Shown here: in pieces, positions 3,494 to 34,084 of the stretch
Position numbering within the stretch: position 1 is the stretch's first letter
How the letters are laid out: the number at the start of each line of letters is the position of its first letter
Origin: a virus
Lineage: Duplodnaviria > Heunggongvirae > Uroviricota > Caudoviricetes
Direction: 5' to 3' (one strand)
IMG/VR virus record: IMGVR_UViG_3300042673_001280
Length of the DNA stretch: 64,000 bases
Notes under the pieces: model-generated
Seen by the model: only the letters and a program-made list of their open reading frames with translations
Told to the model about the DNA's origin: nothing
Databases searched by the model: none
Made by a program: the position numbers and the translations under genes

Positions 3494-4699
3494 ATGGCAC
3501 TTAAGAAAAAAACAAAAGTAACTTCAGTTACAATACGTGAAAATGCTAAAAAGGATAGCAGTCCTGTTTGGGACAACTGGGAAGATTGGACGCCTACTGA
3601 ATATAGAAAAAAATGGCATAACGCTATGCAATACTATAACCTGCAGTTTAGCGTAAAAGATTTAAAACCTGCAGTTGTTAAATGGATGACACTAAATGGC
3701 TGTAACACAGAATATATTAACACTTATAAAGCTACTAAAGATTGGCGCACAAGTACTACTATGGGTTCTATTGCTTCTTGTCTTATCAGAGGTATGCCAG
3801 CTGTTCATGACACTTTTAATAACGGAAGAGATGCGGCTGCTTGGTTAAGAGATGCCATTGCTGCTACAGTTGAAGCAGGTGAAGTAGACATTGAACCGGA
3901 TGAAGAAGGTGAAGTTAAAAAGCCAGCTGCAGTTATTAATATACAAGCTCGCGTAAAAGAAGCTGCAATTGGTATGACAGAAGTTATTGAAGACGCTGTA
4001 GACCAATGGATTACTAATGCAGCTACGTTTGATCCTAAAGCTATTAAAGTAATAAATGCGCTTAAAGCTAAGGAAGCAAAAGCAGCACATGCACGTATTA
4101 TTAAAGATATGTACTCGCGTAATTTGTTGGAATTAGAAGAGCTTGCAGCTGGCAAACCTGATGATGAAGAAAAGCACGATGCATACGAACAGTTACAAGA
4201 AGCTTATAAACATAGAAGTAAAAGAGAAATTAAAAATTTAATTGCATTTTATAAAGAAGTTGAATCTGCGTGTACTATGTTAATTGAAGAAAGTAAAGTT
4301 AACAAAGCACCACGTACTAAGAAAGCAGTACCAAAAGATAAGCTAGTTGAAAAATTAAAATATCTAAAAATATTTGAACCATTAAAACTTGTTTCTATTA
4401 ATCCTACAGATATTATTGGTGCTAAAGAGTTATGGGTATACAACACTAAGAATAGAAAACTTGGTAAATTTGTAGCTGATGAAATAACAGGACCGTTAAC
4501 TGTAAAAGGTGCTGCTATTTTAGGATATGATGAACATAAGAGTGTTCAAAAAACTATACGCAAGCCAGAAGAAACACTTAAAGAGTTTAAGTCTGCAAAT
4601 AAACTAATGTTACGAAAGTTTTTAGATGATATTAATTCAACCGATACTAAAATGTCCGGTCGAATTAATGAAGATACTATTTTATTAAAAATTGCTTAA
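3494..4699 (+). CDS. hypothetical protein
   Basis: Long ORF with a preceding GGAATAATATG start context. No recognisable motif. Confidence 0.4.
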   Translation: MALKKKTKVTSVTIRENAKKDSSPVWDNWEDWTPTEYRKKWHNAMQYYNLQFSVKDLKPAVVKWMTLNGCNTEYINTYKATKDWRTSTTMGSIASCLIRGMPAVHDTFNNGRDAAAWLRDAIAATVEAGEVDIEPDEEGEVKKPAAVINIQARVKEAAIGMTEVIEDAVDQWITNAATFDPKAIKVINALKAKEAKAAHARIIKDMYSRNLLELEELAAGKPDDEEKHDAYEQLQEAYKHRSKREIKNLIAFYKEVESACTMLIEESKVNKAPRTKKAVPKDKLVEKLKYLKIFEPLKLVSINPTDIIGAKELWVYNTKNRKLGKFVADEITGPLTVKGAAILGYDEHKSVQKTIRKPEETLKEFKSANKLMLRKFLDDINSTDTKMSGRINEDTILLKIA

Positions 4700-5604
4700 T
4701 CTATTGTAGTTTTTGCAGATTCAGCTAATTGAAGATTGATATAATCAACACCGGTATAATTAAAAAATTCTGTTAGCTGTTCTTCAGGAATACTTGATAA
4801 AAATGATAACCAATAGCTCATTGATCTATTTTGCAACTCATCAATACGATCTTGAGATATAACAGGGTCAACTCGTATCTTAGAAATGTAATTATGTGTG
4901 TCTCTTAAATGGTAAATGTGTACAGCAGTATGATGTAACAATTTATATCCATTTAAGAACGCATTTAATGTAGTATGATGTTCTTCACCAAACAAATACA
5001 TAAATGGGCATAACCCAACATGTCGAATAAAATCAGTGTGAGTAAAGAAATTTCCACCGTTTAAATGACGTGCTTTGACAACTTGTGTAGTTGGTTTTGG
5101 TCCAAACTTACCATGTGGTGTTGGCAATTTATTTGAATCAAATCCAAGATTTTTAAGAAATTTAACTGTAAGATACCCCATACCGTCTTCTTGTTCTTTA
5201 AACACATTACCGTTTTTATCAATTGTAAAAACTTTACATGCATTTGACAATGTAATTTTGTGAGTGTTATAAAACGTTGCTGCATTAAAAAACTCTTCAA
5301 GCAAATATTCATCCCAATTTTTATCAAATACTGAATGAGAATCAATTTGATAATAAAAATCTTCATCGTTTATATTTAAAGAATTAATATGCCTTGCCCA
5401 TCCAACACCGTTAGAATATTCTGGAGGCATTTGTTTATAAATTACAGATGGATGATCTTTATATTTACAATCAATAGTTGATTGATCAAATACTGAAATT
5501 GTTAGTTTATTATTGTTAGATTGCATTGATAATAATGATTCAATAGTAGTATCCAATAACGGATCTCTATACGACACTATACTTACAAAAATTGAACGAC
5601 TCAT
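4696..5604 (-). CDS. putative glycosyltransferase (GlcNAc-transferase-like family)
   Basis: N-terminal IFVSIVSYRDP motif resembles the signature start of the eukaryote/virus GlcNAc-transferase family. Recalled from memory, not searched. Confidence 0.4.
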   Translation of the reverse strand: MSRSIFVSIVSYRDPLLDTTIESLLSMQSNNNKLTISVFDQSTIDCKYKDHPSVIYKQMPPEYSNGVGWARHINSLNINDEDFYYQIDSHSVFDKNWDEYLLEEFFNAATFYNTHKITLSNACKVFTIDKNGNVFKEQEDGMGYLTVKFLKNLGFDSNKLPTPHGKFGPKPTTQVVKARHLNGGNFFTHTDFIRHVGLCPFMYLFGEEHHTTLNAFLNGYKLLHHTAVHIYHLRDTHNYISKIRVDPVISQDRIDELQNRSMSYWLSFLSSIPEEQLTEFFNYTGVDYINLQLAESAKTTID

Positions 5605-5611
5605 ATGTTAT

Positions 5612-5645
5612 CCTATAACGGTAAAGTATTATTTACCGTTATAGG
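5612..5645 (-). promoter_or_regulatory. perfect 14-bp inverted repeat (hairpin) that sequesters the SD of the glycosyltransferase gene
   Basis: cctataacggtaaa-gtatta-tttaccgttatagg. On the minus-strand mRNA the AGGA of the stem end is the only SD-like element, 7 nt before the AUG at 5604. Confidence 0.5.
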
Positions 5646-5685
5646 CGTTAACATACATTTAATCTAATAAGAAAACTGTAATAGG

Positions 5686-8600
5686 TTACTTAAGAAACGT
5701 AATAGATGCGCTCCCTGCAGTTCCGTAATATGCCGAAGTTGATTGACCTGTTCCGGATCCTCCTTTGCCACCAGTTCCTGGCGCATCAGTAGAAGTTGAT
5801 GAAACTACTGTAGAAGGTGCTGCAGTAATTGTTAACCCACCGGTATAATCTGAAGAAACAAACAATCCACCGGATACCCCAGCTCCAGCACTTGTAACGT
5901 TATCTTTACCTGCGATACCGCCTGTACCTGTAAACGTAGATTGGGTTGTTGTACAATAAGGTGCTCCACCGCCACCGCCACCTCCACCGTCAATTCCAGT
6001 AGCAGGCGTGTTGCCTGCTACGCCAACTGCTAAATCTGTAGATGCGCTAATATACGCAACACCTGGTAGGTTATATGGTGCCGCAGCTCCGCCAGTTTTT
6101 CCATTTGACCCGCCACCACCGCCACCGCCCCCGCCTGCAATTACAAGTTTACGCGATGTTGCACCGATCGTAGTAACTACAGTAGCGCCACCACCACCGC
6201 CGCCTCCGCCTGATGTACCAGTTGGCCCTGTGTTACCGCCGGTACCGCCTGCATATACACCGCCACCACCTGCACCGCCTCCACTAGCCTTTACTGCACC
6301 GTCTCCAGGTAAACCGCCCCCGCCAAGTGCTACACTTAACGATGTTGTTCCGGCTGGCAGACTATAAGTAGCGGTTATTCTAGGTGCACCTGCTCCTTTG
6401 TTACCGGCATTAGCATCAGAACCACCACCTGCACCGCCTCCGCCGCATGCAGCAATGATTACTTGAGTTGCATCCCACGGCACGGTTACTGATTGGGTTA
6501 CTGACGTTATTTGATTTGCAGAGACAACCGAAGCAGTTGATGCTAACAGACTAATAGCTGCTGATTCAACTTGACTCCATGATGCTACATTAGTTAAACC
6601 ACCGGTCGTTGCAGGACCTGTGCCTGGCATAAAATTAACTGCTAATACATAGTATGCAGTGTTTGGGCTTGTTAAACTAAGATACTGTTCAGTGTTTGTT
6701 AGGTAATAATCAGTTGAGAGCCATACTCCTATACCAGTTGTATCAGGTGGGGTAAATTTAGGAGAGCCATATGGACCTGTATTAGAAGGATTCCATGACT
6801 TATAGTAAAAATGTGTTGCACTTGTACACGTAGCAGTAAGTTTTACACCAAATGCGCCTGTTGCTGCAGTAACCGACACTTGACCAACTGCAGCTGGCGG
6901 TGTTGTATAATTAGCACTACTTGATAAAGTTGATGCTGCTGATGTTAACCCATTTGCAGTTCTCTTTGCAGTTGCAACAAAGTAATATTCGGTATTGTCA
7001 GCACCGAGCGTAACAGAAACTGCCTTTGGACTTGCATAAGTTCCTGCATCTGTGCCTGCAGATGTAGGCACAGATGTGCCATAACTATATAAAAATGCCG
7101 TAGCAGCTACTCCGCCTGATCCTGCTGTTATTGTTAATGTAACACTTCTGTCGCCTGCTTTTGCAGTTGACGTTAACGCAATAGTAGGCACTGCTGGCGC
7201 CGACGGGTATGTATATGCTGCAGTGCTTGCATCTGATGGTGCACCTACCCCGCCAAACGTTACGCCGTTGATTACTGTAGTATTGTCAGCTCTAACATAA
7301 TAGTAATACGGTGTTTCTGCAGTCAATGTTCCTGTATCAGCATACGACGTTCCGGATCCGGTTGTAGTAAGCCTGTTAGTAGAATCACTTAATCCTCCTC
7401 TATACACAGAATATGCTAAAGTTAATCCAGCTGGTGCAGTCCAATTAACTGTTAAACTTGTAGTCGATACTGAAGTTGTTGTACCTATTGTTACTTTAGG
7501 TGGTAACGTGATTGCAATCGTCGTTGCTGCAGTTGCACTATCACCACCACCATTGTTTGCAAATACAGCTACACCGTATTGTTTATTAGCAGAAAGACCG
7601 GTATTAACGCTTACTGATGTACTAGTTGGCGACGCTGTAAATACAGCAGTTGTAGTACCGTATTCTGTTACAGTTACTTTGTACGATGTAGCTGTTCCGG
7701 TTGTTGGTGCAGACCATGATGCAGTAAACGACGTAGTTGCTGCTAACGAAATAGTAATCATGCCCGGAGTTCCAGGTGGCTGATATGGAGTAGTAACTGA
7801 AACACTAACATCTGACATTGTACTCGAACCACCGTTATTAGCAGTTTTTACATAATACGTATACGCAGTGTTTTCTGTAACTGAACCTGATGCATTATCT
7901 ACAAATGTAACTGTACCTGTACCGCCGCTTGCAGCTAACGTAACATTGCCGGTTTTTATAATATCACCCGCTGCGGTACCGTTTCTATATATAGTATATG
8001 TCATTGGCGCATTGTAGTTAAACGTGGTTCCGTTGTGTGTTTCAACAGGTTGTGAAACATTACAACTAACGGTAATACTATTATATGTTACACTAGACGT
8101 AGTTGGAGTCGATGGTTTATTAGGTGCGTTTGCTAATGTAGCACCGGAAACTGATGTAGAAGCAGTACCATTTGGATTAGTGCTATATGCTGTTACTATA
8201 AAATTGAAAGTAGCATATGGATATAAGTTGTCAAACTTAAACGACGTAGCTGTCAAGTCGCCCGAAAAAACATAATAACCGTCAAATCCGTCACGACGTG
8301 CAATATATTTTACAACTGTTCCGCCCGATGCCGGTGCATCCCATGTTACTGTTATACTAGATGATGTAATACCAGTTGTTGCAACATTCCGAGGAGTACC
8401 TGGTACTAAATCCCAAGTAGTTACTGAATCACTAGCAGCTGATTCTATATCCGATTCACCACCTGTTGTAACTGAAGTAACGGTATATTGATACGCGGTT
8501 TTAACAGCTAATCCAGTATCTGAAAAACCTGATGTTTTAGTACCAAGTGGGGTTTTTCCAGGATACCTATATACTTTATAAGAATCTGCACCAGTTACTG

Positions 8601-11600
8601 CAACCCAAGATACTGTTATACTATCAGACGCAGTTACTGTAGCTGTTGGTTTAGCAGGTGCTAATACTTTATCTGCAAGAGTTGTAACTTTATTACTAAT
8701 TGGAGACTCTGCAGATGCACCTCCATTGTTGTTTGCAATTAACGTATACCAGTATTCTGTTTTAGCAACTACTGTATCAGTATATGGACTACTAGAAATT
8801 CCAGTTATTAAAGTACTTCCAGTTGATGTGTATCGTTTGAAATCATGCGATGTTGCACCTGCCTTCGTATTCCATGTTATTGTTAATGAAGTCTGTGCAG
8901 TAGCAGGTGATGTAACTATTGGAGCTGATGGTTGTGTTATCTTTGTTGTAAATGCTTTAGATGTACTAATACCAGTAATTGGACTAGCTTCATTATAAGT
9001 TGTAATAGTTACAGTATGCGCATTAGCTGAAGCTAACCCAGTAACATTAATTGATGTTGCAGTTGCAGATACGTTAGTGTTATCTAAATATGGCAGACCG
9101 TCAGTATCTTGTACAACTTTCACTCTATATTTTGTAACCTGTCCGGTTGCTTTTGTCCAGTTAATTGTTGCTCCAGTAGTTGTAATAGTTGCAAGAGGAA
9201 TAGTTATTCCAGTTACTACCGTTGGATCATCTGGTAAAGTTTGTACAGGGCTGCTATAGTCTGATGCAACTGACAGCCCGCCATCATTTACTGCAATTAA
9301 TGCATACTTGTAACTATCATAAGAAGTTAACCCTATACTAATATAGATTAATGTAGTAGTTCCAGAAGTAGTTACTCCGGTTAATGTTTCCGACGTACTA
9401 GTTGTAATATCGTACTTAATTAAATTATAACTCGTTGCACCTGTAATCGCACTCCATGAAACATTAAGTTTAGTTCTACCATCTGGCGGAGAAAGTGTAG
9501 TAACTGACGGACTTGATGGTTGTGTTATCTTTGTTGTAAATGCTTTAGATGTACTAATACCAGTAATTGGACTAGCTTCATTATAAGTTGTAATAGTTAC
9601 AGTATGCGCATTAGCTGAAGCTAACCCAGTAACATTAATTGATGTTGCAGTTGCAGATACGTTAGTGTTATCTAAATATATCTGACCGTTAGTATCTTGT
9701 ACAACTTTCACTCTATATTTTGTAACTTGACCAATTGCAGCTGTCCAGTTAATAGTTGCTCCAGTAGTTGTAATAGTTGCAAGAGGAATAGTTATTCCAG
9801 TTACTACCGTTGGATCATCTGGTAAAGTTTGTACAGAGCTGCTATAGTCTGATGCAACTGACAGCCCGCCATCATTTACTGCAATTAATGCATACTTGTA
9901 AATATCATAAGAAGTTAACCCTGTACTACTATAGGTTAATGTAGTAGTTCCAGAAGTAGTTACTCCGGTTAATGTTTCCGACGTACTAGTTGTATTATTG
10001 TACTTAATTAAATTATAACTCGTTGCACCTGTAATCGCACTCCATGAAACATTAAGTTTAGTTCTACCATCTGGCGGAGAAAGTGTAGTAACTGACGGAC
10101 TTGATGGTTTCTCTAACTTAGTTCTAAATGTTACATCTGATGTAGTTATAGAATTATTTTCATTAGTTGTTGTTACTGACACTGAATATAATCCATTTGC
10201 AGTTAACGTAGTAGTAAAAGGAGTTTGACCCATTGTTGCAGAAACTGACGTTCCGACATCTTTTGATTCTAATACTGTTCCACTTTGTTTAAGATTAACA
10301 GTATACTTTGTAACTTGACCAATTGCAGCTGTCCACGTTGCAGTTGCAGTAGACGATGTAATATTTGGCAATGTAACTGCTAAGTTAGTTACTACTGCTG
10401 CAGGTCCTGGCAATGTTCTTACAATATTACTAACCGGAGATGCAACTGACGACCCGCCTGCATTAACTGAAACTAATGTATATTTGTATTGATTATAACT
10501 TAGTAAATCAGTATCGAGATACGGTGATGTAACATTAGTTAGTGTTACTGATGCATTCCCTGGAGTAGTAACATCGTACCTAATTAAATTATAACTTGTA
10601 TGTCCGGTAACATTTTCAGTCCATGTAACAGTAAGTTGGTGTTGACCTAACGATGTATCAACTACACCTGTTACTACCGGAGCATTAACTGGAGCAGCTG
10701 TAGTTGTCCAAATATCTTCACTTGTTGATACAGGTAAATTATAGAATATAGATGATTCGTTTACTGTATACAATGTTGCTGTATATTTTGAAGTAGCAGC
10801 TAACCCTGTTGAAATTGTAATCGTATTAGTTGTATTTGTTACATCATTTTTTCTATATACTTCAGTAGTTGTTCCAAAATTTACTACTACAAGTTGATAA
10901 TAGTTAACTACTGGACTAGTTGACAATGTCCAATTAATAGTAAGGGTTGATACAGTTGAAGATGGTGTTGTAAACACTGCAGATATTGGAGCATCTGGTA
11001 ATGATCTTACAGAGTCACTTGTTGCCGACATCAGACTGTCTCCGCCTGTACTATGTCCTTTAACTGTATAGGTATGTGAGGTATACACACCAACAGTATC
11101 AACATATGGCATTGTAGAAACTGTAGCAGTCGGAGTACTTGCACCGTCTCTGTATATGTAATAAGTAGTTGCATAAGTTGATGCAGAATTTACACTTATT
11201 TGTGTAGAACTTTGTACTGTACCAACCGGTTTTGATGGAGTTAATGGTACATTTTCTAATGTTAATAAATCAACTGATGTAGTTTTAGTTGCTGACACAT
11301 TCTTAGCACTAACATCAACTCTATAGTTCTTAGTGTCTGAATGTACTGCTGATGCAATTAATCCTGTTATATTAGCCGATGATGCAGATTGCGCTAAGTT
11401 ACCAGAATCGTATACAACTGAACTATCAGATAACTTAGTTACTATTACCTGATAATTATCTACTTGACCGTCAATTACTAAACTTTGATAAGCCTTCCAC
11501 GTCACAGTTGCAGTAGTTTGCGTTATAGCTGATAGCACTACATTACTTGGCGGCATGATGTTAGATTTACCATGACCATTATGAAGTGATATAATAGTAC

Positions 11601-11730
11601 CACTTGTTCGAGAAACTTGAAATAAAATTCGAACATCGTCGTCATTTAACGAAATTGGTCCGGATGCTTTATTTAACTCTGTGCGAACTTGCCCCATTGA
11701 AATTGCATTGTATTCTAATGGCAATGTCAT
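5686..11730 (-). CDS. giant tail-fibre/adhesin protein (2014 aa): about 12 FN3/Ig-like repeats plus a C-terminal poly-glycine receptor-binding-like domain
   Basis: Recurrent ~95-aa modules with the LP.P ... V.W ... Y.Y pattern and extreme Thr/Ser content. Last ~280 aa contain G8-G10 runs separated by short variable segments. Confidence 0.7.
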   Translation of the reverse strand: MTLPLEYNAISMGQVRTELNKASGPISLNDDDVRILFQVSRTSGTIISLHNGHGKSNIMPPSNVVLSAITQTTATVTWKAYQSLVIDGQVDNYQVIVTKLSDSSVVYDSGNLAQSASSANITGLIASAVHSDTKNYRVDVSAKNVSATKTTSVDLLTLENVPLTPSKPVGTVQSSTQISVNSASTYATTYYIYRDGASTPTATVSTMPYVDTVGVYTSHTYTVKGHSTGGDSLMSATSDSVRSLPDAPISAVFTTPSSTVSTLTINWTLSTSPVVNYYQLVVVNFGTTTEVYRKNDVTNTTNTITISTGLAATSKYTATLYTVNESSIFYNLPVSTSEDIWTTTAAPVNAPVVTGVVDTSLGQHQLTVTWTENVTGHTSYNLIRYDVTTPGNASVTLTNVTSPYLDTDLLSYNQYKYTLVSVNAGGSSVASPVSNIVRTLPGPAAVVTNLAVTLPNITSSTATATWTAAIGQVTKYTVNLKQSGTVLESKDVGTSVSATMGQTPFTTTLTANGLYSVSVTTTNENNSITTSDVTFRTKLEKPSSPSVTTLSPPDGRTKLNVSWSAITGATSYNLIKYNNTTSTSETLTGVTTSGTTTLTYSSTGLTSYDIYKYALIAVNDGGLSVASDYSSSVQTLPDDPTVVTGITIPLATITTTGATINWTAAIGQVTKYRVKVVQDTNGQIYLDNTNVSATATSINVTGLASANAHTVTITTYNEASPITGISTSKAFTTKITQPSSPSVTTLSPPDGRTKLNVSWSAITGATSYNLIKYDITTSTSETLTGVTTSGTTTLIYISIGLTSYDSYKYALIAVNDGGLSVASDYSSPVQTLPDDPTVVTGITIPLATITTTGATINWTKATGQVTKYRVKVVQDTDGLPYLDNTNVSATATSINVTGLASANAHTVTITTYNEASPITGISTSKAFTTKITQPSAPIVTSPATAQTSLTITWNTKAGATSHDFKRYTSTGSTLITGISSSPYTDTVVAKTEYWYTLIANNNGGASAESPISNKVTTLADKVLAPAKPTATVTASDSITVSWVAVTGADSYKVYRYPGKTPLGTKTSGFSDTGLAVKTAYQYTVTSVTTGGESDIESAASDSVTTWDLVPGTPRNVATTGITSSSITVTWDAPASGGTVVKYIARRDGFDGYYVFSGDLTATSFKFDNLYPYATFNFIVTAYSTNPNGTASTSVSGATLANAPNKPSTPTTSSVTYNSITVSCNVSQPVETHNGTTFNYNAPMTYTIYRNGTAAGDIIKTGNVTLAASGGTGTVTFVDNASGSVTENTAYTYYVKTANNGGSSTMSDVSVSVTTPYQPPGTPGMITISLAATTSFTASWSAPTTGTATSYKVTVTEYGTTTAVFTASPTSTSVSVNTGLSANKQYGVAVFANNGGGDSATAATTIAITLPPKVTIGTTTSVSTTSLTVNWTAPAGLTLAYSVYRGGLSDSTNRLTTTGSGTSYADTGTLTAETPYYYYVRADNTTVINGVTFGGVGAPSDASTAAYTYPSAPAVPTIALTSTAKAGDRSVTLTITAGSGGVAATAFLYSYGTSVPTSAGTDAGTYASPKAVSVTLGADNTEYYFVATAKRTANGLTSAASTLSSSANYTTPPAAVGQVSVTAATGAFGVKLTATCTSATHFYYKSWNPSNTGPYGSPKFTPPDTTGIGVWLSTDYYLTNTEQYLSLTSPNTAYYVLAVNFMPGTGPATTGGLTNVASWSQVESAAISLLASTASVVSANQITSVTQSVTVPWDATQVIIAACGGGGAGGGSDANAGNKGAGAPRITATYSLPAGTTSLSVALGGGGLPGDGAVKASGGGAGGGGVYAGGTGGNTGPTGTSGGGGGGGGATVVTTIGATSRKLVIAGGGGGGGGGSNGKTGGAAAPYNLPGVAYISASTDLAVGVAGNTPATGIDGGGGGGGGAPYCTTTQSTFTGTGGIAGKDNVTSAGAGVSGGLFVSSDYTGGLTITAAPSTVVSSTSTDAPGTGGKGGSGTGQSTSAYYGTAGSASITFLK
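8928..10105 (-). repeat. two ~590-bp tandem copies (about 95 % identical) inside the fibre gene, each encoding a pair of FN3-like modules
   Basis: Long identical strings (e.g. ggttgtgttatctttgttgtaaatgctttagatgtactaataccagtaattggactagcttcattataagttgtaatagttacagtatgcgcattagctgaagctaa) occur at ~8930 and ~9517. The protein repeats KITQPSSPSVTTLSPPDGRTKLNVSWSAITGATSYNLIKY. Confidence 0.8.
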
Positions 11731-12359
11731 TATTTAATTCCTTTTAACTCGTCTATTTGAACTTGTTGTGCTTTAATACATTCAATTAACAATGGAATTA
11801 ATTTCTGATAATCAACAGCTAAAATGCCATTATCTCTTTCATGTACTGCTTCTGGTAGTACTTCAATTACTTCTTGAGCAATTACACCTACGTCATATTC
11901 TTTAAATAAAGATTGATTTTGAGTTGCATAATAATCTGCAGTCCATTTAAATGTATTGCCTGAAAGTGTTAGTAATTTCTCAAGTGGGTTAGCAATAGGA
12001 GTAATATTTTCTTTTAATCTTTTATCCGAACTATTGTAAGCAGTAATATTCTGCAACGCAGTAAGATCATGTTTACAATTTACTACACTACCAGCAGCTG
12101 TCGACCCAATGTTAACTATAGTTGCAGCTCCACCAATATTAAGAGTAGTTGCAGTAGTATTAATTAGATCAAAGCTTCCAACAACTGATGCAGATATAGA
12201 ATCTGTAAAAAGAGGAGCAGTTGCAAAAACTAACTTCCCAGTACCAGTAGTATCAACTGCACCGACATCAGCTAAATTAATGTAATCTAAATATGCTAAT
12301 CGACCTAAATCAGCATTAGTTGGTACTTGATGTGGTCTATTTCCTATAAAACTACTCAT
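11730..12359 (-). CDS. short fibre protein carrying a C-terminal intramolecular-chaperone (peptidase S74-like) domain
   Basis: C-terminal SDKRLKENI ... GVIAQEV ... VDYQKLIPLLIECIKAQQ matches the auto-processing chaperone of endosialidase/T5 pb1-type fibres. N-terminal Gly/Thr/Ala beta-rich stalk. Confidence 0.6.
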   Translation of the reverse strand: MSSFIGNRPHQVPTNADLGRLAYLDYINLADVGAVDTTGTGKLVFATAPLFTDSISASVVGSFDLINTTATTLNIGGAATIVNIGSTAAGSVVNCKHDLTALQNITAYNSSDKRLKENITPIANPLEKLLTLSGNTFKWTADYYATQNQSLFKEYDVGVIAQEVIEVLPEAVHERDNGILAVDYQKLIPLLIECIKAQQVQIDELKGIK

Positions 12360-12414: not shown

Positions 12415-15400
12415 TTATTGCATTGTAAGTACTAACAATTCATTACCGCTTAATTGTTTTGCGTAATATGTAAATTTTGTAATGTATTGTGTACCGACTC
12501 CATTACCAAATTTTAACATATTAACATCAATTGGAGCTGCAAAATTGCTATCATCAACAGCCGCTGGCTGATTATTAAACGTATATGTTGCAGGAGATGT
12601 TGCAGGATTTAAACCATAACTAACTGCATGAGTTACAATTGTGTTTAACGTTGACGTTGTATAACCAGCAAAATCAAACTGAACAGTTGAGGTGTTAGTT
12701 TTACAAACCGAATTATATACAATGCTTCCGCTAGCCGAATTACATCCAACTTCAATGTACGATGTTACTGCAGGTGAAGTTTGAATTCTAGCACCGCCGT
12801 AATCAGCAAATCCGTCATTAATACCTAACGCAGTATGTGATAACACCATAGTACCTTGTGTCTTGCTATACCAACTAGAAAAATTAGTTCCAGTTACATT
12901 AACATCTTCTACAGTTCGAAGCACTGGTGCTTCGAGCGTAGGAATATAACTTGTCATATATTTACCATCTTCAAGTTGCGCTCCCCATAATACAACAGTA
13001 GTATCAGTAGATGCAAACTGTAAACTTATTTTATTTGTAGGTGGAGATTCAGTAAAGCTAAGTCGAACTAGCGATGAAATATCATATGTTGATTCATCTA
13101 TTACTGTCCAATTCATACTAGTTGAGAATTTATAACTTATTGCGCCAACTCCTGTAACTCGTTTAATCCATATTGAGAATGTTTTAAACCCACTACCCGT
13201 TGTCGAATCGTTAAACACTAATTCTGCATTAGCAGCATTGGCAGTAAATTGATATGCAAACCCTATACCATACGGAGTTAAAGTATTTGATGTTGCGCGT
13301 GTCATTAACGGATATGTCCATGACGAGAACGATTCAGATCTTGTTAAATAATTTGTTCTTGCTTCTTCAAGTAACAACCCTTTTGACTCTCTAGTAATTG
13401 GATCGTGATCAAACCTTGCGCAATTTGGATCAGCAACAACTAATAAACCGGTTGAATTATAATATGTTGCAATACTTGTTCTGCTAAACGTAATACGAGG
13501 ATCAAGTGTTTTACTATTAGCAAAATCAAACATAACTGATGGACGTATTGTTGGTCTTGTTGCAGTTGCAGTAATCCCTGTTGCAGACATTATTGAACTA
13601 CCTAATGTTAAGTCAATTCGGCTGTTTGTTGATAGTGCCCATTTTCCAGTTATAGTACCTTCAATAGTTGCATCACCAGTTGATAATGTTTTAGATTTTA
13701 ATACACTAGTAGCTGCAGTAACATCTAACGTACCTGTAATTGCTACATTAGTAGATGATGCCGCGCCACCCGATGCAACTATAAAATCAACGTTGCCAGG
13801 TGTAGTAAATTTAACTTGTCTGTTTGGATTAGTATCGTCAACATTATATGTATCAATGATAGTATAACCATCAACTTTTAAACCTTTAACATTAATAACA
13901 CCGTTAGTATCTGTCTGAACAATACTAGATGCTCCGCCAACTTGTGTATACGGAACTACTTCATATGCAGTTGCCTTACTGCTAACTACTGTTTTAACTG
14001 TCATTACACCAACTGATGTAAATGTTGCATTTTTAATACCGTCGCCATCAAGTACAATGTCACCTGTTGAAACTTCAGTAACTGCACCGGTTGCATTAGT
14101 ATAGTTACCTAACATTTTCTTAGCAGCAACATGTTTTATTTTAGAAATATCAATACCGTTAGCAGATGTTCCGGTTTCTAAATCAATCCACCCATTAGTA
14201 GATTTAAACACTGCACTATTATACGTTGATACACCTAAATCAGATTGCAGATTAGTTGATGCAGCTCTTGCCACTGCTTTAACTAAGTTTAACTTGCTTT
14301 GATCTATTTCAGCAGTTAAACTAACCATACTGTTAACAATTTTAGCAGCCCCAATAGTTGAAGTTAATGTAGCAGTAGAACCAACTACTACATACGCAAT
14401 AGTTACATCGCCAGTTAATGTTGAGTTAATCCATTTATTTGGTCCAAGTAACCCAGTGTTTCTTTGTACTAGTAATTGAGCATCAACTAATGTAGCAGAT
14501 GTTATTGATACATCTCCTAATTCTGATATTGCATTGTTACTAGCAATTAATCTATCAACATACCCTTTAGTTGCAGCATCTTTTGATTCAATATCAGGTT
14601 CTAAACTTGGTGTTTTAAGATTAGTAATTGCATTGTTACCCATTGATAAATCGCCAGACATAACAAGCGATCCGTTTAATGGTAAAAACCCTGGTCCAAT
14701 CCATGTAGAGAATGGAACTGCAGAACCACCGTGGTCTAAACCTAATCGTTTGTCAATATATCCACGTACTGCACTTTGTACTGGTACCGTGTCAGCAGCG
14801 TTGTTAGTTAATGAAGAGTCTGATGAAAATTCATTTACTACAACACCTCGACTAAATCCAAAACCTTCAATATTTGATAATGAAATCTTAGCACTAAATG
14901 TTACTGTTCCTGTACCTTGATCTACTGAGAAAAACCGCCCTACTCTAAATATACCGTCTTGGTTGGTTGAAACATAGAAACAACGACCTACGCCTTCGTC
15001 CAACGTCTCGCGTGATGCATTACGAGGTAAAGCAGGATCACCGTAAATTGAATATGGAATATTTGTTGTACTATATCCGCCTGTTCCAATATCGCAGAAA
15101 TCATGCCCAGTTGCACGACATGTACTAATACGTGTTGTTACTTGTGCAAGTGAATTAGATTGGTGTCCAATTTTTAATGTATACGACGAACTACGACTAA
15201 AAGGTTTACTAATACCTAAATTAGAACTAGTTCCAGATGCTAATGTATCTGTTATTAGCGTAGGATCTACTATATCAAAAACACCCGGATTATATGGATA
15301 AAATACAGTAGCACTTGTAGCTGTTGCAGATATTACACGAACAAATCCATTATATAATGCGTTAATGTTTCCTTCAACTTTAAGCCATGAATTGTCTGCT

Positions 15401-18400
15401 AGTGTTGTAGCTCTTGCATTAAATTGGAAAGTTACTGAATATCCGGTTGCGTTAGTTGACGAAGTTGGTAACGGAGATGTAAGTACTGTAGATGTAGTAC
15501 CTAAAATTTCAGCTCCCGGATTAACAGATTCTACAGGATCAGTTGGGTATAACACAGTTATTCTATTAACAGATACTCCTTCAGATGCAGTTGTATCTAC
15601 ATACACCGGAGTAGATAATTCAACTGATAAATCAGCAGGTGTTATAGGTTGAAGTTCATCTGGAAGATGTAAATTTAAATCCGGAATATTAATATATCCA
15701 GAACCACGATAAACAATTTTAATTTCAACAATTTTAGTATCAACAATCTTACATACTGCTTTTGCTTGTTTTGTATATCCTCCGCCATCGATTGTAATTG
15801 TCGTACCATCAGGATATCCAAGACCGCCATTTACAACAGTTATTGTTTTAACATTTGCCGCAGTTGATGCTCTAATTTGAGATCCTGCAGGAACCCAACA
15901 TGACGGACTAACTGTAATAGTATGATTTGGAATATCAACTTCTTGAATAATTGCACCAACGCCACTAATTGATTCTACTGCCGAGGTCACAACCATGCCA
16001 ACCTTAAATCCATTAGTTGAACTAATTGTTAACGTAGTTTGATCTAATACACCAACAACTTGATAAGAACCGTTATAGTCACTTAATGCGTTATCGTTAA
16101 CTGCAATATTAAGATAACCGTCAACTTTTGGTAACACATTATCTTTATTATACGGAACATCAAACGTTACGACTGTAGCAACTACGCTGCCGTCTTGCAA
16201 TGCCTTACTATGATACGACATTGCAGGTAATGTATAGTCGTCGGCACTATTATTTGTTATTGGAACACTTGAAATTTCAATATATCCGTTACGTGTAGAT
16301 CCAAATGTAACTGAGTAATTATTAATTGCAGTACCGACTGTATCTCTAACTGTTACAACTGCAATAGCCGGGTCTTCGCTATTAATTACTACATTATCAA
16401 CATACCCAGTAAGTGTGATAGTAGTTCCATTTTTTACTACAAAATAATCAGAAATATTAATTGTGCCTACAGTACCACTAACTGTTAGTATATTACCAAC
16501 ATAGCTAGTACATGTTCTACTAACTGCAGCAGTTGGTTGTACATATTGCAAAATTTGATGTATTCTACCATTCCATGCTGTAATATAGGTTTGTTTGTTA
16601 AGTTGATCTATTACTGCAATTTGTGTAATTGGAATTACTGCAAGTTTAGTATCACTTACTTTATACCCTTGGGTTGCATTTGTAAACGAAACTTCGCCTG
16701 ATGGTGTTACCGACGGTGCTGCCTCTAATGATGGTTCAACTGTTGTTAACACAATCTCAAATTTACCAGCATCTACACCTGTTTTTGCAACTACAGATTG
16801 GACTATTTGTCCAGCAAACCCAATACCAACAATTGTTTGACCTACTGCAATGGTAGTACCAGCTGCAACGTTATTAACGACAATCGTCGTACTTGATGTA
16901 CTACCTGATACAACAGTTGCAGTAATAGTGTTAGACGGATCGCCGTTGATGATATTAGTAGGATCGATCATAATATTGTAATATGCAAATGAATTATCAC
17001 TTTGTAAAATTGCAATATTTGGATCTAATAGCTCACCGGTTGATTCTGCTAAATTATAAGCAACGATACGATATACATCATTTAAGTTATCGTTATATTG
17101 CAATGCAGTAGACGGTCTAGTTGGTTTAACGTTATCAATGTTATTAAACTTAACATTTTTTAATACACGAATTGATACTACTTGTCCATCATACAACGCT
17201 TTTGCTAATCCTGAACTTGCAGTGTTATTATCGCCTGATGTACTTAAATTAAGTTTAATTACAATTATGTTGTTTACCCGAACAGTAGTATACTCAACTG
17301 ATGTAATAATATAGTTAGTAATAATACCACCGTTTGCACTATGGTCAATTTCTAATCCCGACCCGGTAGTTGGAATATACTCATACGCATGTACCCATAC
17401 TGCAACTGCAGGAGTAGTAGCAGTAGGCACCATCTCGTTAATAGTTTCACCTTGTTTATAAACTTTTGCAGTTTGCAACATATGATTTGCTAAGTTTGCA
17501 CTATCTGGTAATTCAGTAACATCAAACCCTGAAGCACGCATACCATAGTTACCAAATGTGTTTGAACACCCGACACCACGTAAATTACTACCGTTATTTG
17601 CCCAGAACCCGGTATGTGCATAATATGTAAATGTACACACTTGTTCAGTAAATGCACCGTTAGATGCTACTATACCATAACCTAAATCGTTAAACATTGC
17701 AAAGTCATTTGCTAACATTGAACGATTACCACCGGTTTCTAAATTAATTGTTAAATCTGCACCGTTGTTTAAAAAATCAGTTACTTGTTTAGCAATCCCA
17801 GTAGGACCTGTAATATCTAACCCAGTGTATGCAGTTGTATTAACATTACTTGGCAACGTAGGCCATTCTACTGTAGGTAAGGTTGATGCTACATTTGGAT
17901 TTGAATTTACATAATCAATTACTATATTAACTAGCGTAGTAAGGGTTAAATCAAATGTACTATCAGCAGCTAATGTTTGAATTTGATTTTCTTTATTGCC
18001 ACGGGTTGGAGTTACTTCAACACCTTTAACAATTGATGTTAAAATATTACGTAATCTTATGTATGCTGTTTGACATACTGATTGCACATCTCCATCTAAC
18101 AATACTGATTCATATAAATTTGAATTGTTTTTAGAAAATAACGACGTAGCATAATCAACTGTTTGGCTGTTACCGCCATAGAAAATATCATATGTAATTG
18201 CATCAACTAAATAGCCAACATCACGTTCACTCTTTTGTCTATTATAGTTAGGCAACGTGCTTAACACATAATTATCTGAAATATACGCAGTTATTTCAGC
18301 TTTAATAAACGGTTTATTAATTTGAAGAATATCACGAGCTTTATTTTCATTTAGTGTTTTAGATGCCCAAACAAAGTCTAATGTAGCACTTACACCGTTA

Positions 18401-21400
18401 ACTAACATACTTGTTATAAGTGTACTTGATAAAGTTAACCCGGGAATTTCAGCATTTGCTAATTCGATCGATTTCTCAATTCCTGCTTTAGTTAACCCTT
18501 GAAGCTCTCCAATTAACAAACTAGAAGATAGTCTTAAGAATGCTCTACCTGCATGTATTGCACGATAATTAGTACCTAATATCGCATCAGTAACTACTGC
18601 ATCAATTACATACCCTGCATCGCGTCGTGCCTTTACTTCATCGTACACTAAATTGTTTGATATTGGATTATACATATACGGCGTTGTAGTATCTAACGTT
18701 AACGTTACTGTTTGAGTAGCAGCATTAAATTCAACAATGTCGTCAATTTGATAACGCTTTCCTCTAACATAAAACGAACATGGCGGTTGTGGAGGTCTAA
18801 CATCAAGTCCGCTGCTTTGACCAAACACAATTTTACCAGACGGCGTACTATCTGCAACTGCACTTAATACCACTGTAGCATTAGTCGATGGCGCAACTGG
18901 TAACGTTACACTTACAACATATTGTCTACTTTCAAATCCAGTACCTGTAATTTTAACACCTGGTTTTAATCCAACAATGTTAACGATATTATTAACAACC
19001 ATAGTAGTTGATAATCGTCCGCCACTTACATATGTACCAACTGCACTAGTTGTACCTTGTACTTTAATTGTAAGACCTAAGTCAGTAATCTCTTTAATAG
19101 TGCCGTATACGCGACCTGCAAATCCGTCAATATATTGTCCACCTGCAAATCGTTTATAGTTGTTACTTTGTGAAAAACTAGAACATTCTTGAATGTACGG
19201 TGATTTAGTTTTAATGTTACCTTCTGGATCTAGAACCATTGCAAAGCCGCCTTGACCTTGGAACGTTACACCAATAATACGATTACCTTCATTACATAAG
19301 AATACGTCAATTTCTTTATTATTTTTAGCAGGACTTGTTACATCTAATGGATTAGTTAAATAATGACGTCCGTAGTTAATAGTGTCAAACAAGAACCAGT
19401 TGCCGGCTAGTTTAGTAAATGCAGTTTCAAACGGATAAATTACCGTACAGTTCATTGTGTTACCACTAACTGAATCAATAACTGCTTTTCCTCTTTTCTT
19501 ATTGCCACCAGCAGGTATAACATTATCAGTAAACACTTTACCTACCCAACTTAATAATGCTTGGTAATTATTACTTAACGTGATAATAATTTTACCACTA
19601 ACACCGTCAAGCGTAGCAGTAATACCTAAAGAGACTAACGGTGCCGAATTTGAAGCATAATCAATAAGACCTACTTCTAACGCATCAATAATTGCATCGC
19701 GATAGAAAAATACTCTACGCCACGGGCTTTGACTTTCTCTATCGATTGGACGAATAAGTGTTCTACGCATCTCGTCACCGCGAACTGAAACGTTTGCTGG
19801 AATTTTTAACGGAAAGTCTTCGTAATATATTCCGCTTTCTATAAATACTGAAAGATTTAAATCTCGTACTGTTTCACCAAATTCCAATTCTTCGCCTACT
19901 TTAAAGAAACCGGGTTTAGTTAATCGAACTTGTATTCTGTCTTTACCTGTTGATATTTCAGGTGTGTATTTTACAATGCTAGCATACGCCCCTGATGCAG
20001 TTAAATTAGTTGACACCCGGCCAACTCCGACAATTATCTTAGCAGGAAAAATATCATTGCTTTTTGGAGCACCTTGGTCAACATAACCCTTACCGCCGTT
20101 GTCAATATCAATATTCCAAATTGCAGTACCGTGCGACGGCGTGGCTGCAAAACTAACACCGTAACGGATTATGTCTAATACACTATCTAAACTATCAGTA
20201 AATATTGCAGTAGCTTCATCTGAAATTTCAGACAGATAGCTGCCAACTACTCCAATGCTACTTGATGGTAGTATTGCAGTTGATGAAAACGCAGTAAGCT
20301 GAGTTTCAGCTTGTTGGTATCGAACTGCTGTGTAACCTGTTAATACCTCTATACCTAAGTTTTTTGCAAATGCAATACCGTCAAAAGATTGAACATAATG
20401 TGTGCCAATTGCAACTGATTTCGCGCTTGAGTTTTTGTAAAAACTTTTACCTGCAGTTATTGATTGCCAGTTTCCACCGGTAATAATATCTATTGCGGCT
20501 GCATCAACTATTAGTCCAATATCGCGATAACATAACGATTCATCATAATTAAATCCACCGCCAAACGCAGTATTAACATAATCAATAGAGGTATTTTCAA
20601 TTACTTCGGCATTATTATTAATAATAACCTTTAAACTAATTGCATCAATGTATGTTCCACCAGTAAATATAGTGTCATCAACTGGGATACCCATATATAA
20701 GTCATTATCAATTGCAGTAGCTGCAGCTGTAAATTTTGTACCAATAAGGGTTGACGTTGCATTAGTATCATCGTCGTCGCTATGTCCGTTAACGATAGTT
20801 CTAGCGTATAACGAAGTTTTACTAATAACAGTTTTTGTAATAGCCGGCGTGCTAACTATTGTCATTTGATGTGCAGCTGCAACCGATGCTGCTGTCCCGC
20901 CGTACGTAATATCATAACATACTGAAATAATTAGTTTCCTTAAATCAACTGCTAATATAGCTAAAACATCTACGTCAGTGATACTTTCATCAATATCTAA
21001 ATATGAGTTAACATCATTAATAATACTAGTAATAGCAGCATTATCTAAACGATTACGTGCGTTACGAATCCAGCCATTTGGTAGCGGTTGTGTAGTGCCG
21101 CCAGTTACATATGAATTTACTTCAACATTAATATCTGGATATCTTGGTAACTCTGTCGGAAGTTCACCTGACTTAATTATTGTGTCAATTTCAACAAACA
21201 ACGCGTTAATTCTTTCTAAATAATTAGGATCGTTAATTACTGGGTAGAAGTGATCCATATACCATGATGCTGTAGTAGTAACATCTGAATTTGTGCCAAC
21301 AGTGTATATAGATTTATCTAATTCTAATGCTGTAAAAAATGTTATTAAATCAGGTGTCCCAGCAGCAGAATTTGGCAACTGGATAGCCGGAGTAGTATTA

Positions 21401-24838: not shown

Positions 24839-25372
24839 TTATCCTGTATATCTACAATGGCTCTTCTTTGTTTCCCACAGCTCAACTGCAGTAACCTTTG
24901 CTACATCACCAATGCGTGATTGTGCATATTCAAACAAATACTTACAGATGTTTTCACTAGTTGGTACAAAATCTACTAGTACAAAACTGTTATAATGTAA
25001 CTGCTCACCTTCAGTTAATCCGACCCAGTTGCAAGTTCCTAAGTTAGTAAAGTTTGCAAATGGGTGTTCTGAATTCCTCCATTCGTTACCTGTAATTAAC
25101 TTAAAGTTTGGATCATTAATATCAATCATAAACTTATGATCTAGCACATCATCTACAAATTGTTTCATAAAGTTTAAATTCTTAAAGTCTGTAACCATTT
25201 CTGAATGATCTAAAGTATCAGAACCTAAAAATACTTTAATTGAATAGCTGTGTCCGTGTAAATGCTTGCAGGCACAGTCAGTTGAAATACTTAACTCAAC
25301 ATGATTTAATTTTTGTGCCCATACTCTGTGTCCCATTTCAAAATGAAACTCTTTATCTATTTCCCATTTCAT
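24839..25372 (-). CDS. queD: 6-carboxy-5,6,7,8-tetrahydropterin synthase (QueD/PTPS family)
   Basis: FHFEMGHRV, CACKHLHGHSYSIKV (Cx5HGH zinc motif) and LDHKFMID align with the three QueD signature blocks. It has a ~50-aa C-terminal extension relative to E. coli QueD. Confidence 0.8.
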   Translation of the reverse strand: MKWEIDKEFHFEMGHRVWAQKLNHVELSISTDCACKHLHGHSYSIKVFLGSDTLDHSEMVTDFKNLNFMKQFVDDVLDHKFMIDINDPNFKLITGNEWRNSEHPFANFTNLGTCNWVGLTEGEQLHYNSFVLVDFVPTSENICKYLFEYAQSRIGDVAKVTAVELWETKKSHCRYTG

Positions 25373-32443: not shown

Positions 32444-34084
32444 ATGACTAACACTGATTGGGCAACTAATGTTGCCCTATCATCTTATACAGATGATGAA
32501 TTTAATTTAGGTATTTGTGGATCGCATGACGCCTCAATTGCAATATCAAAAGGGAATAAAATCTTAGAAGTAGTTGAGATTGAAAAATTCACTGGAGAAA
32601 AACATGCTAATTTAATATTTAATACTGAAACACAAAAAGATATTAATAGCCACATTATTACCGAAGTATTAACTTACTTTAGACGCAAGTATCAAGCTAA
32701 CACATATAACACTGTTTTTTGGAACTTGGTCTGTTACCACAACCAATGGTTAATGGATGACTTACCTACAGAAATTAAAAACTTGTTCCCTTCGCGGAAT
32801 TTTAAAAGATTTAGCCATCACTTATCACACGCATCAAGTGCATTTTATCAATCGCCGTATAATCGAGCATTAATTATAACATTTGACGGCGGAAGCGATG
32901 AAGGATTATTAAATGTATATATCGGTAATGGAACTGACGATTTAATTCATTTATATAGTAATACTCGTAATTACTGTGTTCCTTATGCAGTAATAGGCCA
33001 TTTCATTTACGAGATTAAAAATGAACCAATCTATCAAATGGGGCAATTTACGTATCCGGGTAAAATGATGGGATTAGCCGGGGACGGAGAAGTAGCTGAC
33101 GATATTGAGCAAAATTTTACAAACTATTTCGAAGAAGTTGCAACTGCTAACTTACAAATACCTGAATTAATAGATTGCTTTGCAAAACATATGAATATTT
33201 CAAATTCAGTACAGGCGAGTAAAAATACTGCAAAAACATTTGCCGCCACTGCTCAAGTAGTATTTGAAAAATTGCTACATGAAGAAATTGGTGGGTTCTT
33301 AAAGGCATCACACGGGTTGCCGATTGTGTTGTCAGGCGGTGGTGCATTGAACATTATAAACAATTCAAGAATAGCAAAATCTCATAAAGTATTTGTTCCG
33401 CCTAATCCGAATGATTCAGGGATTGCAATAGGATTGTTATGCAATGGTATTCGACCAAAAGAAAAGATAGATTGTGCATACCTTGGTCCAGACGCATTAG
33501 ATAGCAGTACGTTAGAAGATGTTGTAGCGTTACGTAACGGCACTACTGTTGATCTAAATAAGCTTGCTGATAATATCATTGCAGGTAAAATTTATGGCGT
33601 AGTCCGAGGCCGATCTGAATGTGGGCCAAGAGCATTAGGTAATCGAAGTTTGATATGTAGTGCAATTATTCCTGAAATGAAAGATATCTTAAATTCTAAA
33701 ATTAAAAATAGAGAAAGTTTTAGACCGTTTGCACCAGTTGTAAGATTAGAAGATGTTCACACATATTTTAAAAGTAAAGATGAATTAAGATTTATGTCAT
33801 TTAATGTTGAAATTCATAAACAGTATGAATCACTATTATATGCAGTATCAAGTTCAGACAATACTGCTAGGGTACAAACAATTACTCGAGAACAAAATGA
33901 ATTCTTATACGATTTATTAACACTATTAGATAAAAAAGTCGGACATGGTATTTTGCTAAACACATCGTTTAATCTTGATGGAAAACCGATTTTAAACAAA
34001 TATGCCGATGCATTAGACGTATTAGACACTAAAGATATAGACGGTGTAATCTTTGAAAATTATCTTATTGAAAAATCAAAATGA
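32444..34084 (+). CDS. carbamoyltransferase of the NodU/CmcH/TobZ family
   Basis: N-terminal LGICGSHDASIAI motif on an ASKHA/Kae1-like fold. ~550-aa length with a C-terminal YrdC-like half, typical of O-carbamoyltransferases. Confidence 0.65.
   Translation: MTNTDWATNVALSSYTDDEFNLGICGSHDASIAISKGNKILEVVEIEKFTGEKHANLIFNTETQKDINSHIITEVLTYFRRKYQANTYNTVFWNLVCYHNQWLMDDLPTEIKNLFPSRNFKRFSHHLSHASSAFYQSPYNRALIITFDGGSDEGLLNVYIGNGTDDLIHLYSNTRNYCVPYAVIGHFIYEIKNEPIYQMGQFTYPGKMMGLAGDGEVADDIEQNFTNYFEEVATANLQIPELIDCFAKHMNISNSVQASKNTAKTFAATAQVVFEKLLHEEIGGFLKASHGLPIVLSGGGALNIINNSRIAKSHKVFVPPNPNDSGIAIGLLCNGIRPKEKIDCAYLGPDALDSSTLEDVVALRNGTTVDLNKLADNIIAGKIYGVVRGRSECGPRALGNRSLICSAIIPEMKDILNSKIKNRESFRPFAPVVRLEDVHTYFKSKDELRFMSFNVEIHKQYESLLYAVSSSDNTARVQTITREQNEFLYDLLTLLDKKVGHGILLNTSFNLDGKPILNKYADALDVLDTKDIDGVIFENYLIEKSK

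Follow-up and report, generated by a model that had tools for sequence, protein, structure and literature searches.

The 64,000-nucleotide stretch of virus record IMGVR_UViG_3300042673_001280 (Caudoviricetes), here called the window, encodes a tail appendage protein of 2014 amino acids (aa) that is rich in fibronectin type III (FN3) domains and carries a glycine-rich domain at its end. The gene is a complete open reading frame (ORF) on the minus strand (5686..11730), as stated in an initial annotation made from the letters of the DNA. We conclude that the C-terminal tip (aa 1744-2014; 5689..6501, minus strand) is, in fold and family, probably a glycine-rich domain (GRD) of the ALK/LTK and Pfam Gly_rich_2 type, that is, a TNF-like beta-sandwich whose strands are joined by polyglycine hairpins. 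Its role is assigned with lower confidence. The boundaries of the tip were set by homology and by the structural model, and they agree with those of the initial annotation, which had tentatively interpreted the region as a gp38-like adhesin fused to the fibre.

Glycine is concentrated at the very end of the protein. Counted in windows of 50 aa, it amounts to 1-8 residues as far as aa 1750, and then to 11, 27, 14, 16 and 12 up to the C-terminus; the final 270 aa contain 82 glycines (30%). The runs in the tip are G8, G9 and G8, plus three G4. Thus, the homopolymeric runs described initially as G8-G10 were found, with G9 being the longest and no G10 among them. When the final 270 residues were shuffled 200,000 times, at least one run of eight or more appeared in 1.0% of the shuffles and three such runs in none. 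The runs are not collagen G-X-Y triplets, as the initial annotation had noticed: the longest (G-nonG-nonG)n stretch in the tip has three triplets, and no match to Pfam Collagen was obtained. The codons inside the runs are mixed (GGT, GGC, GGA and GGG), Tandem Repeats Finder detected no DNA repeat at the runs, and the G+C content is 53% in the tip DNA versus 35% in the whole window. Taken together, the rarity in shuffles, the lack of G-X-Y periodicity, the mixed codons, the absence of a DNA repeat and the base composition indicate selection on the protein. DNA slippage as the source of the runs was ruled out by the mixed codons and the lack of a repeat. A proline-rich ORF of 119 aa is located on the opposite strand (6008..6367, plus strand), entirely within the fibre ORF, with PPPPPPPPP facing the glycine runs. 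It is the mirror image of the glycine codons, in agreement with the initial annotation, and not a gene.

The tip was compared with domain families and solved structures. Against Pfam Gly_rich_2 (PF21722), it gave an E-value of 0.006 and 17 bits (cut-off 24.3) over profile positions 4-220 of 226. Because this single-sequence score is sub-threshold, family membership leans on transitive homology and on the predicted structure. A word-indexed protein search with the tip returned two matches only, as poly-Gly words crowded the candidate list; exhaustive phmmer was used instead and yielded 85 homologues at E<1e-3. An alignment and profile (A1) were built from the window tip and 26 homologues. PF21722 is matched by twelve of its 27 members, with 2.2e-7 as the best value, and PF12810 (ALK_LTK_GRD) by two. 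The A1 profile matched the solved ALK/LTK glycine-rich domains 7lir (2.8e-10), 7nx0 (9.1e-8) and 7n00 (6.4e-7), with the poly-Gly positions that correspond to the G8 and G9 runs of the window in register with ALK GGGGGGGGATYVF and IIAAGGGG. The polyglycine-II (PPII) helices 816-824 and 841-848 of ALK are listed in Table 1 of PMC13243192. Via the numbering of the 648-1025 construct, the aligned G8 (aa 1841-1848) and G9 runs of the window would correspond to these two helices. When GenBank phages were searched with the tip by megablast and tblastn, no match was obtained, to which the BLAST low-complexity filter may contribute. The single-sequence PDB search with the tip returned spurious poly-Gly matches only, and NCBIfam holds no model for it.

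The alignment shows a regular order of strands and glycine segments, and all window features given here lie on the minus strand. It opens with a strand, ...TVPxGVTsI..., leading into GGGGGGGG.D, and the next strand pair is followed by VGGGG..G. The first G4 of the window protein (aa 1763-1766; 6433..6444), contained in IIAACGGGGAGGGSD, lies just past strand SVTVPWDATQVIIAA and aligns to ALK ISGYGAAGGKGGKN. The remaining two G4 are found in SVALGGGGLPGDG (aa 1803-1806; 6313..6324) and SGGGAGGGGVYAGGTGGNTG (aa 1821-1824; 6259..6270). The middle part of the alignment contains the motif GGxGGNAGxxGxSGGGGGGGGAT, a strand pair closing with VAGGGGGGGGGG, and then a variable insert. The first G8 run (aa 1841-1848; 6187..6210), with the motif SGGGGGGGGATVV, is encoded by GGC GGA GGC GGC GGT GGT GGT GGC and aligns to the ALK GGGGGGGG segment; its column entropy is 0.39 bits, the majority Gly reaches 91%, and the predicted local distance difference test (pLDDT) score is 94. 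The G9 run (aa 1866-1874; 6109..6135; motif VIAGGGGGGGGGSNG), aligned to ALK IIAAGGGG, has an entropy of 0.47 bits and a pLDDT of 91-92. The end of the alignment is formed by DGGGGGGGGGG, further Gly-rich segments and a last strand, GYxxIxY (ASITF in the window protein). The second G8 run (aa 1915-1922; 5965..5988; motif IDGGGGGGGGAPY) corresponds to this conserved DGGGGGGGGGG and has an entropy of 0.32 bits with a majority Gly of 94%. Over the family, the column entropy of the three long runs is 0.3-0.5 bits, versus about 2.5 bits for the inter-run loops, which are 28-50 aa and 46-92 aa long. The first variable loop (aa 1875-1914, SNGK...ATGID; 5989..6108) lies between the G9 and the second G8, with an entropy of 2.55 bits, a family length range of 28-50 aa and a pLDDT of 67-85, and it is a candidate for the ligand-contacting surface. 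The second variable loop (aa 1972-2006; 5713..5817) precedes the final beta-strand ASITFLK. With 54% gaps in the family alignment and a pLDDT of 47-50, it shows the lowest conservation and confidence of all segments.

The tip was modelled by AlphaFold2 with A1. The model has a mean pLDDT of 81.4, a predicted template modelling (pTM) score of 0.82, and about 10 beta-strands, which form a TNF-like jelly-roll beta-sandwich core. In this model, the Gly runs reach pLDDT values above 90 and are assigned by DSSP to neither helix nor strand, which is expected of polyglycine-II (PGII) segments; the PGII geometry of the runs is putative. The runs are conserved parts of the structure and no low-complexity filler. 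Low confidence is limited to aa 1721-1730 and to loops inside 1881-1900 and 1972-2000. A search of BFVD revealed 184 viral models that match the tip fold at E<=1e-3. The best matches are virion structural proteins of cyanomyophages (TM ~0.6, E 1e-14). Others include Caulobacter phage proteins labelled 'receptor protein-tyrosine kinase', 'glycine-rich domain-containing proteins' of giant viruses, minor tail proteins of mycobacteriophages, and the Goslar tail fibre repeat protein.

The part of the protein preceding the tip is a string of FN3-like beta-sandwich domains, about 17 in tandem (aa 58-1700; 6631..11559, minus strand). Pfam fn3 matched 10 stretches of it (E 8.9e-57), and an iterated hidden Markov model made from the protein's own repeats revealed 13 significant and 4 weak repeats. 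Within this array, a 196-aa unit of two FN3 domains is duplicated in tandem (aa 542-737 and 738-933, 184/196 identical). At the DNA level, the duplication covers 8902-9789 of the window, with copies that are 93% identical and spaced by 588 nt. Two metagenomic relatives were found. One of them, P0003 (1818 aa), equals the window protein minus exactly one 196-aa two-FN3 unit and is otherwise identical; the difference reflects either a fibre length that varies with the copy number of the unit or a collapsed repeat in the assembly. The other, P0001, the closest relative, differs from the window protein in the pre-tip domain and linker (aa 1621-1743; 6502..6870, minus strand). Within aa 1618-1686, 53 of 69 residues are identical (~77%), a 6-aa indel follows, and aa 1730-2014, containing the glycine-rich domain, are 100% identical. 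At this distance, the variable part is the domain before the tip (aa 1618-1703) and not the polyglycine domain. For the N-terminal anchor, PHROGs gave one weak family of unknown function, and tblastn against phages and the word-indexed search gave nothing.

Two other explanations of the glycine runs were weighed against the GRD assignment. According to one, the runs lack a defined fold and serve as a spacer, either of disordered low-complexity sequence or collagen-like. Disorder is the usual prediction for homopolymeric Gly, and two loops of the tip have a pLDDT below 50; however, the confident model and the lack of triplet periodicity ruled out both the disordered-linker and the collagen-like readings, and we give such a spacer practically no chance. 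The structure prediction proposed in the initial annotation yielded a confident fold that is neither disordered nor collagen-like, and the tip, as modelled, probably folds. According to the other explanation, the one originally favoured, the tip is a T-even gp38-type adhesin (a PGII sandwich combining glycine-rich motifs with hypervariable segments) fused onto the fibre. Both proteins have Gly-rich motifs that alternate with variable segments, and in both a strand ending in Cys is followed by poly-Gly (AACGGGGAGGG in the window protein, WICGGGGGGGGF in S16 gp38). A local likeness of the PGII arrays of gp38, Pam3 gp24 and Bxb1 gp33 has also been published (PMC9608196, 2.7 A over 52 C-alpha; PMC13243192). 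The alternation of conserved Gly runs with variable segments is a part of the original idea that stands, yet it is common to the GRD family and does not discriminate. The kinship was rejected. Pfam gp38 did not match the fibre at E<=0.1, and no gp38 chain appeared at E<=10 in the PDB profile search with the tip. The direct comparison with S16 gp38 (sequence from NC_020416) gave an hhalign probability of 1.35% and a BLASTP E-value of 0.92, and no sequence, profile or global fold similarity was detected. S16 gp38 (6F45) is a separate 249-aa protein placed on gp37, with an attachment domain and a beta-helix in place of a TNF-like sandwich (PMC9608196). The global fold of gp38, with its attachment domain, beta-helix and three-layer PGII sandwich, is not seen in the tip, which is not a separate small protein docking on gp37 but the C-terminal end of one ORF of 2014 aa that is not interrupted by a stop. 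The fusion in cis was described correctly, and it is normal for the glycine-rich domain family. Consequently, gp38-family membership failed all discriminating tests and is very unlikely. A gp38-like way of working may survive as an analogy, in which the polyglycine-II array would be a rigid scaffold showing variable loops at the fibre end.

By analogy with what has been proposed for Pam3 gp24 and for the Klebsiella phage fibre TFP_Y, the glycine-rich domain is most likely the host-surface-binding end of a long flexible appendage. In the mechanism we propose, the ~10 beta-strands would form a TNF-like jelly-roll sandwich that holds the Gly-rich hairpins, into which the connections between strands are extended. 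The polyglycine-II segments would pack side by side by main-chain hydrogen bonds, which is possible with glycine alone, and this requirement would account for the invariance of the G runs. Between the Gly segments, turns and inserts would be free to vary and would make up the exposed surface, with aa 1875-1914 and 1972-2006 as the putative binding surface for a component of the host envelope. The FN3 string would make the tip flexible and extend its reach. The mechanism presumes that the protein is part of the virion and that its variable loops bind the receptor, and the oligomeric state is presumed as well. Several observations weigh against it. The tip by itself stays under the Pfam gathering threshold, and its global TM-scores against solved structures in Foldseek are low (0.34-0.39). 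In P0001 the tip is identical and the preceding domain has diverged, which gives no sign of hypervariable loops at short range. The domain is C-terminal in just 11 of the 85 homologues and N-terminal in 43 (it is internal in 12 and nearly the whole protein in 19), which indicates a mobile module that is not always a tip. Finally, Bxb1 gp33 is located on a wing that is dispensable (PMC12646305), so a domain of this kind is not necessarily the primary receptor binder. This precedent makes an accessory appendage the main live alternative. The same fold would then belong to a dispensable whisker or brush like Bxb1 gp33, providing weak reversible adhesion to surface glycans without being the primary specificity determinant, and the primary receptor binder would be elsewhere, e.g. 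in the 3835-aa protein encoded upstream. Against it, host-range mutations of TFP_Y fall in the glycine-rich domain (PMC12671077), which is genetic evidence of host-range determination by this type of domain, and in Pam3 the glycine-rich domain is the sole fibre tip (PMC9608196). The window holds nothing that separates the primary from the accessory role; we regard the latter as rather unlikely. A more speculative version, to which we assign a small probability, is a non-trimeric protein: a monomeric tentacle of ~17 FN3 domains with an ALK-type tip acting as an accessory binder of glycans or lipopolysaccharide and decorated by the glycosyltransferase encoded next to it.

The fibre gene lies within a tail-gene cluster, together with genes for the 3835-aa tail protein and a 209-aa Peptidase_S74 protein, both upstream on the same strand. 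The 209-aa protein (11730-12359, minus strand) is composed of a short N-terminal part and a stand-alone Peptidase_S74 chaperone domain (E 6.8e-16). It is unusually small for a protein bearing this domain, it matches the C-terminal ends of numerous tail fibre PHROGs, and its stop codon overlaps the fibre ATG by one base. There is no support for an intramolecular chaperone protease cutting off the tip: the fibre ORF has no Peptidase_S74, and the domain is in the separate 209-aa protein. No Pfam family matched the giant 3835-aa protein (12415-23922, minus strand). PHROG families of tail proteins (E 1.5e-52) and tail fibres (3.6e-41) are matched by its C-terminal third, and the protein may be the main fibre or a baseplate-associated protein.

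The Ser/Thr-rich fibre is followed directly downstream, on the same strand, by the gene for a 302-aa glycosyltransferase of the N-acetylglucosamine (GlcNAc) type (4696-5604, minus strand; Pfam PF11397, E 4.9e-27), and this synteny is kept in metagenomic contig L001. The enzyme might glycosylate the fibre. A hairpin in the minus-strand RNA (5603-5656) lies in the spacer that separates the stop codon of the fibre gene (5686-5688) from the start codon of the glycosyltransferase (5604-5602). It has a perfect 14-bp stem (5612-5645) and an 8-bp outer stem pairing the A and U of the downstream AUG, so this strong, conserved structure hides part of the start codon. The fold has an energy of -26.5 kcal/mol (z -4.4), which was equalled by 0 of 200 shuffles. 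As no U-tract follows, the hairpin is not a classical terminator; it could limit glycosyltransferase translation or stabilise the fibre mRNA. Its sequence is identical in L001, hence there is no covariation to assess.

The other genes of the window include a T4-type ligase, a clamp loader and a family-B polymerase, the last being closest to those of jumbo phages Phosso (49% identity) and Atu_ph07 (45%). The T4-type replication genes and the relatives of the polymerase indicate that the window belongs to a jumbo myophage to which no sequenced isolate is close. PHROG matches were also obtained for a QueD-like 6-pyruvoyl-tetrahydropterin synthase (24839-25372, minus strand), a Nol-like carbamoyltransferase (32444-34084, plus strand) and a 766-aa ATP-dependent protease (40370-42670, plus strand), which suggest base modification and other jumbo-phage functions.

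With this analysis, the end of a giant jumbo-phage protein that otherwise lacks annotation receives a fold and a probable role, and the family assignment is corrected from gp38-like to the ALK/Pam3-type GRD. The analysis also names two segments, aa 1875-1914 and 1972-2006, for host-range engineering or binding studies. The tip adds one more example to a family with solved structures and hundreds of viral members and leaves the understanding of these domains unchanged. If the tentacle-plus-glycosyltransferase reading were true, jumbo phages would show a known domain in a new architecture and a new regulatory pairing.

The domain family is widespread, and structures have been solved for Pam3 gp24, Bxb1 gp33 and the human ALK receptor. 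Gly_rich_2 proteins of phages, giant viruses and bacteria have the same conserved motifs as the window tip; the very long FN3 array of the window is one architecture among many, and most relatives carry the domain N-terminally. Mycobacteriophage Bxb1 provides two relatives of the tip in PDB 9D93, a subdomain of the gp29 tail spike and the 'tail wing brush' gp33. The latter is small (a 230-residue chain) and placed on the accessory wing via gp30 and gp31, and the host is a Gram-positive-type mycobacterium. The ALK/LTK GRD (PF12810; 7LRZ, 7NX3, 7N00, 7NX0, 7LIR) is found in metazoan receptors, where it serves to bind ALKAL cytokines and to dimerise the receptor. It adjoins an EGF-like module and a transmembrane kinase, whereas the phage domain has other loops and lacks those partners. 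In a wider and likewise speculative reading, phage GRDs like this one might mark the pool that gave rise to the metazoan ALK/LTK ligand-binding domain. Pam3 gp24 (PDB 7YPX/7YFW) carries a TNF-like and a glycine-rich domain in cis at the distal fibre end. Its 12 glycine-rich motifs build a lattice of four layers, and it shows a local likeness to S16 gp38 and a more extensive one to the ALK GRD (PMC9608196). The published structure makes the same point as our comparison, that a gp38-like way of working holds as an analogy. In the window protein, the TNF-like plus glycine-rich domain is likewise C-terminal in the fibre chain, and the profile search with the tip gave no sequence-level match to Pam3 gp24. 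The two proteins differ in what surrounds the domain. The Pam3 fibre gp24 is short, with modelled chains of 250-280 residues; its trimerisation relies on an alpha-helical bundle at the N-terminus, and gp25 is required as its chaperone. In the window protein, the domain follows ~17 FN3-like domains in a chain of 2014 aa, no adjoining coiled coil is predicted, and the model has no helical shaft ahead of it. The gene downstream of the window fibre encodes a glycosyltransferase and not a chaperone, and no search was made with the gp25 sequence. What the two proteins would share is a TNF-like sandwich bearing polyglycine hairpins at the end of the fibre chain.
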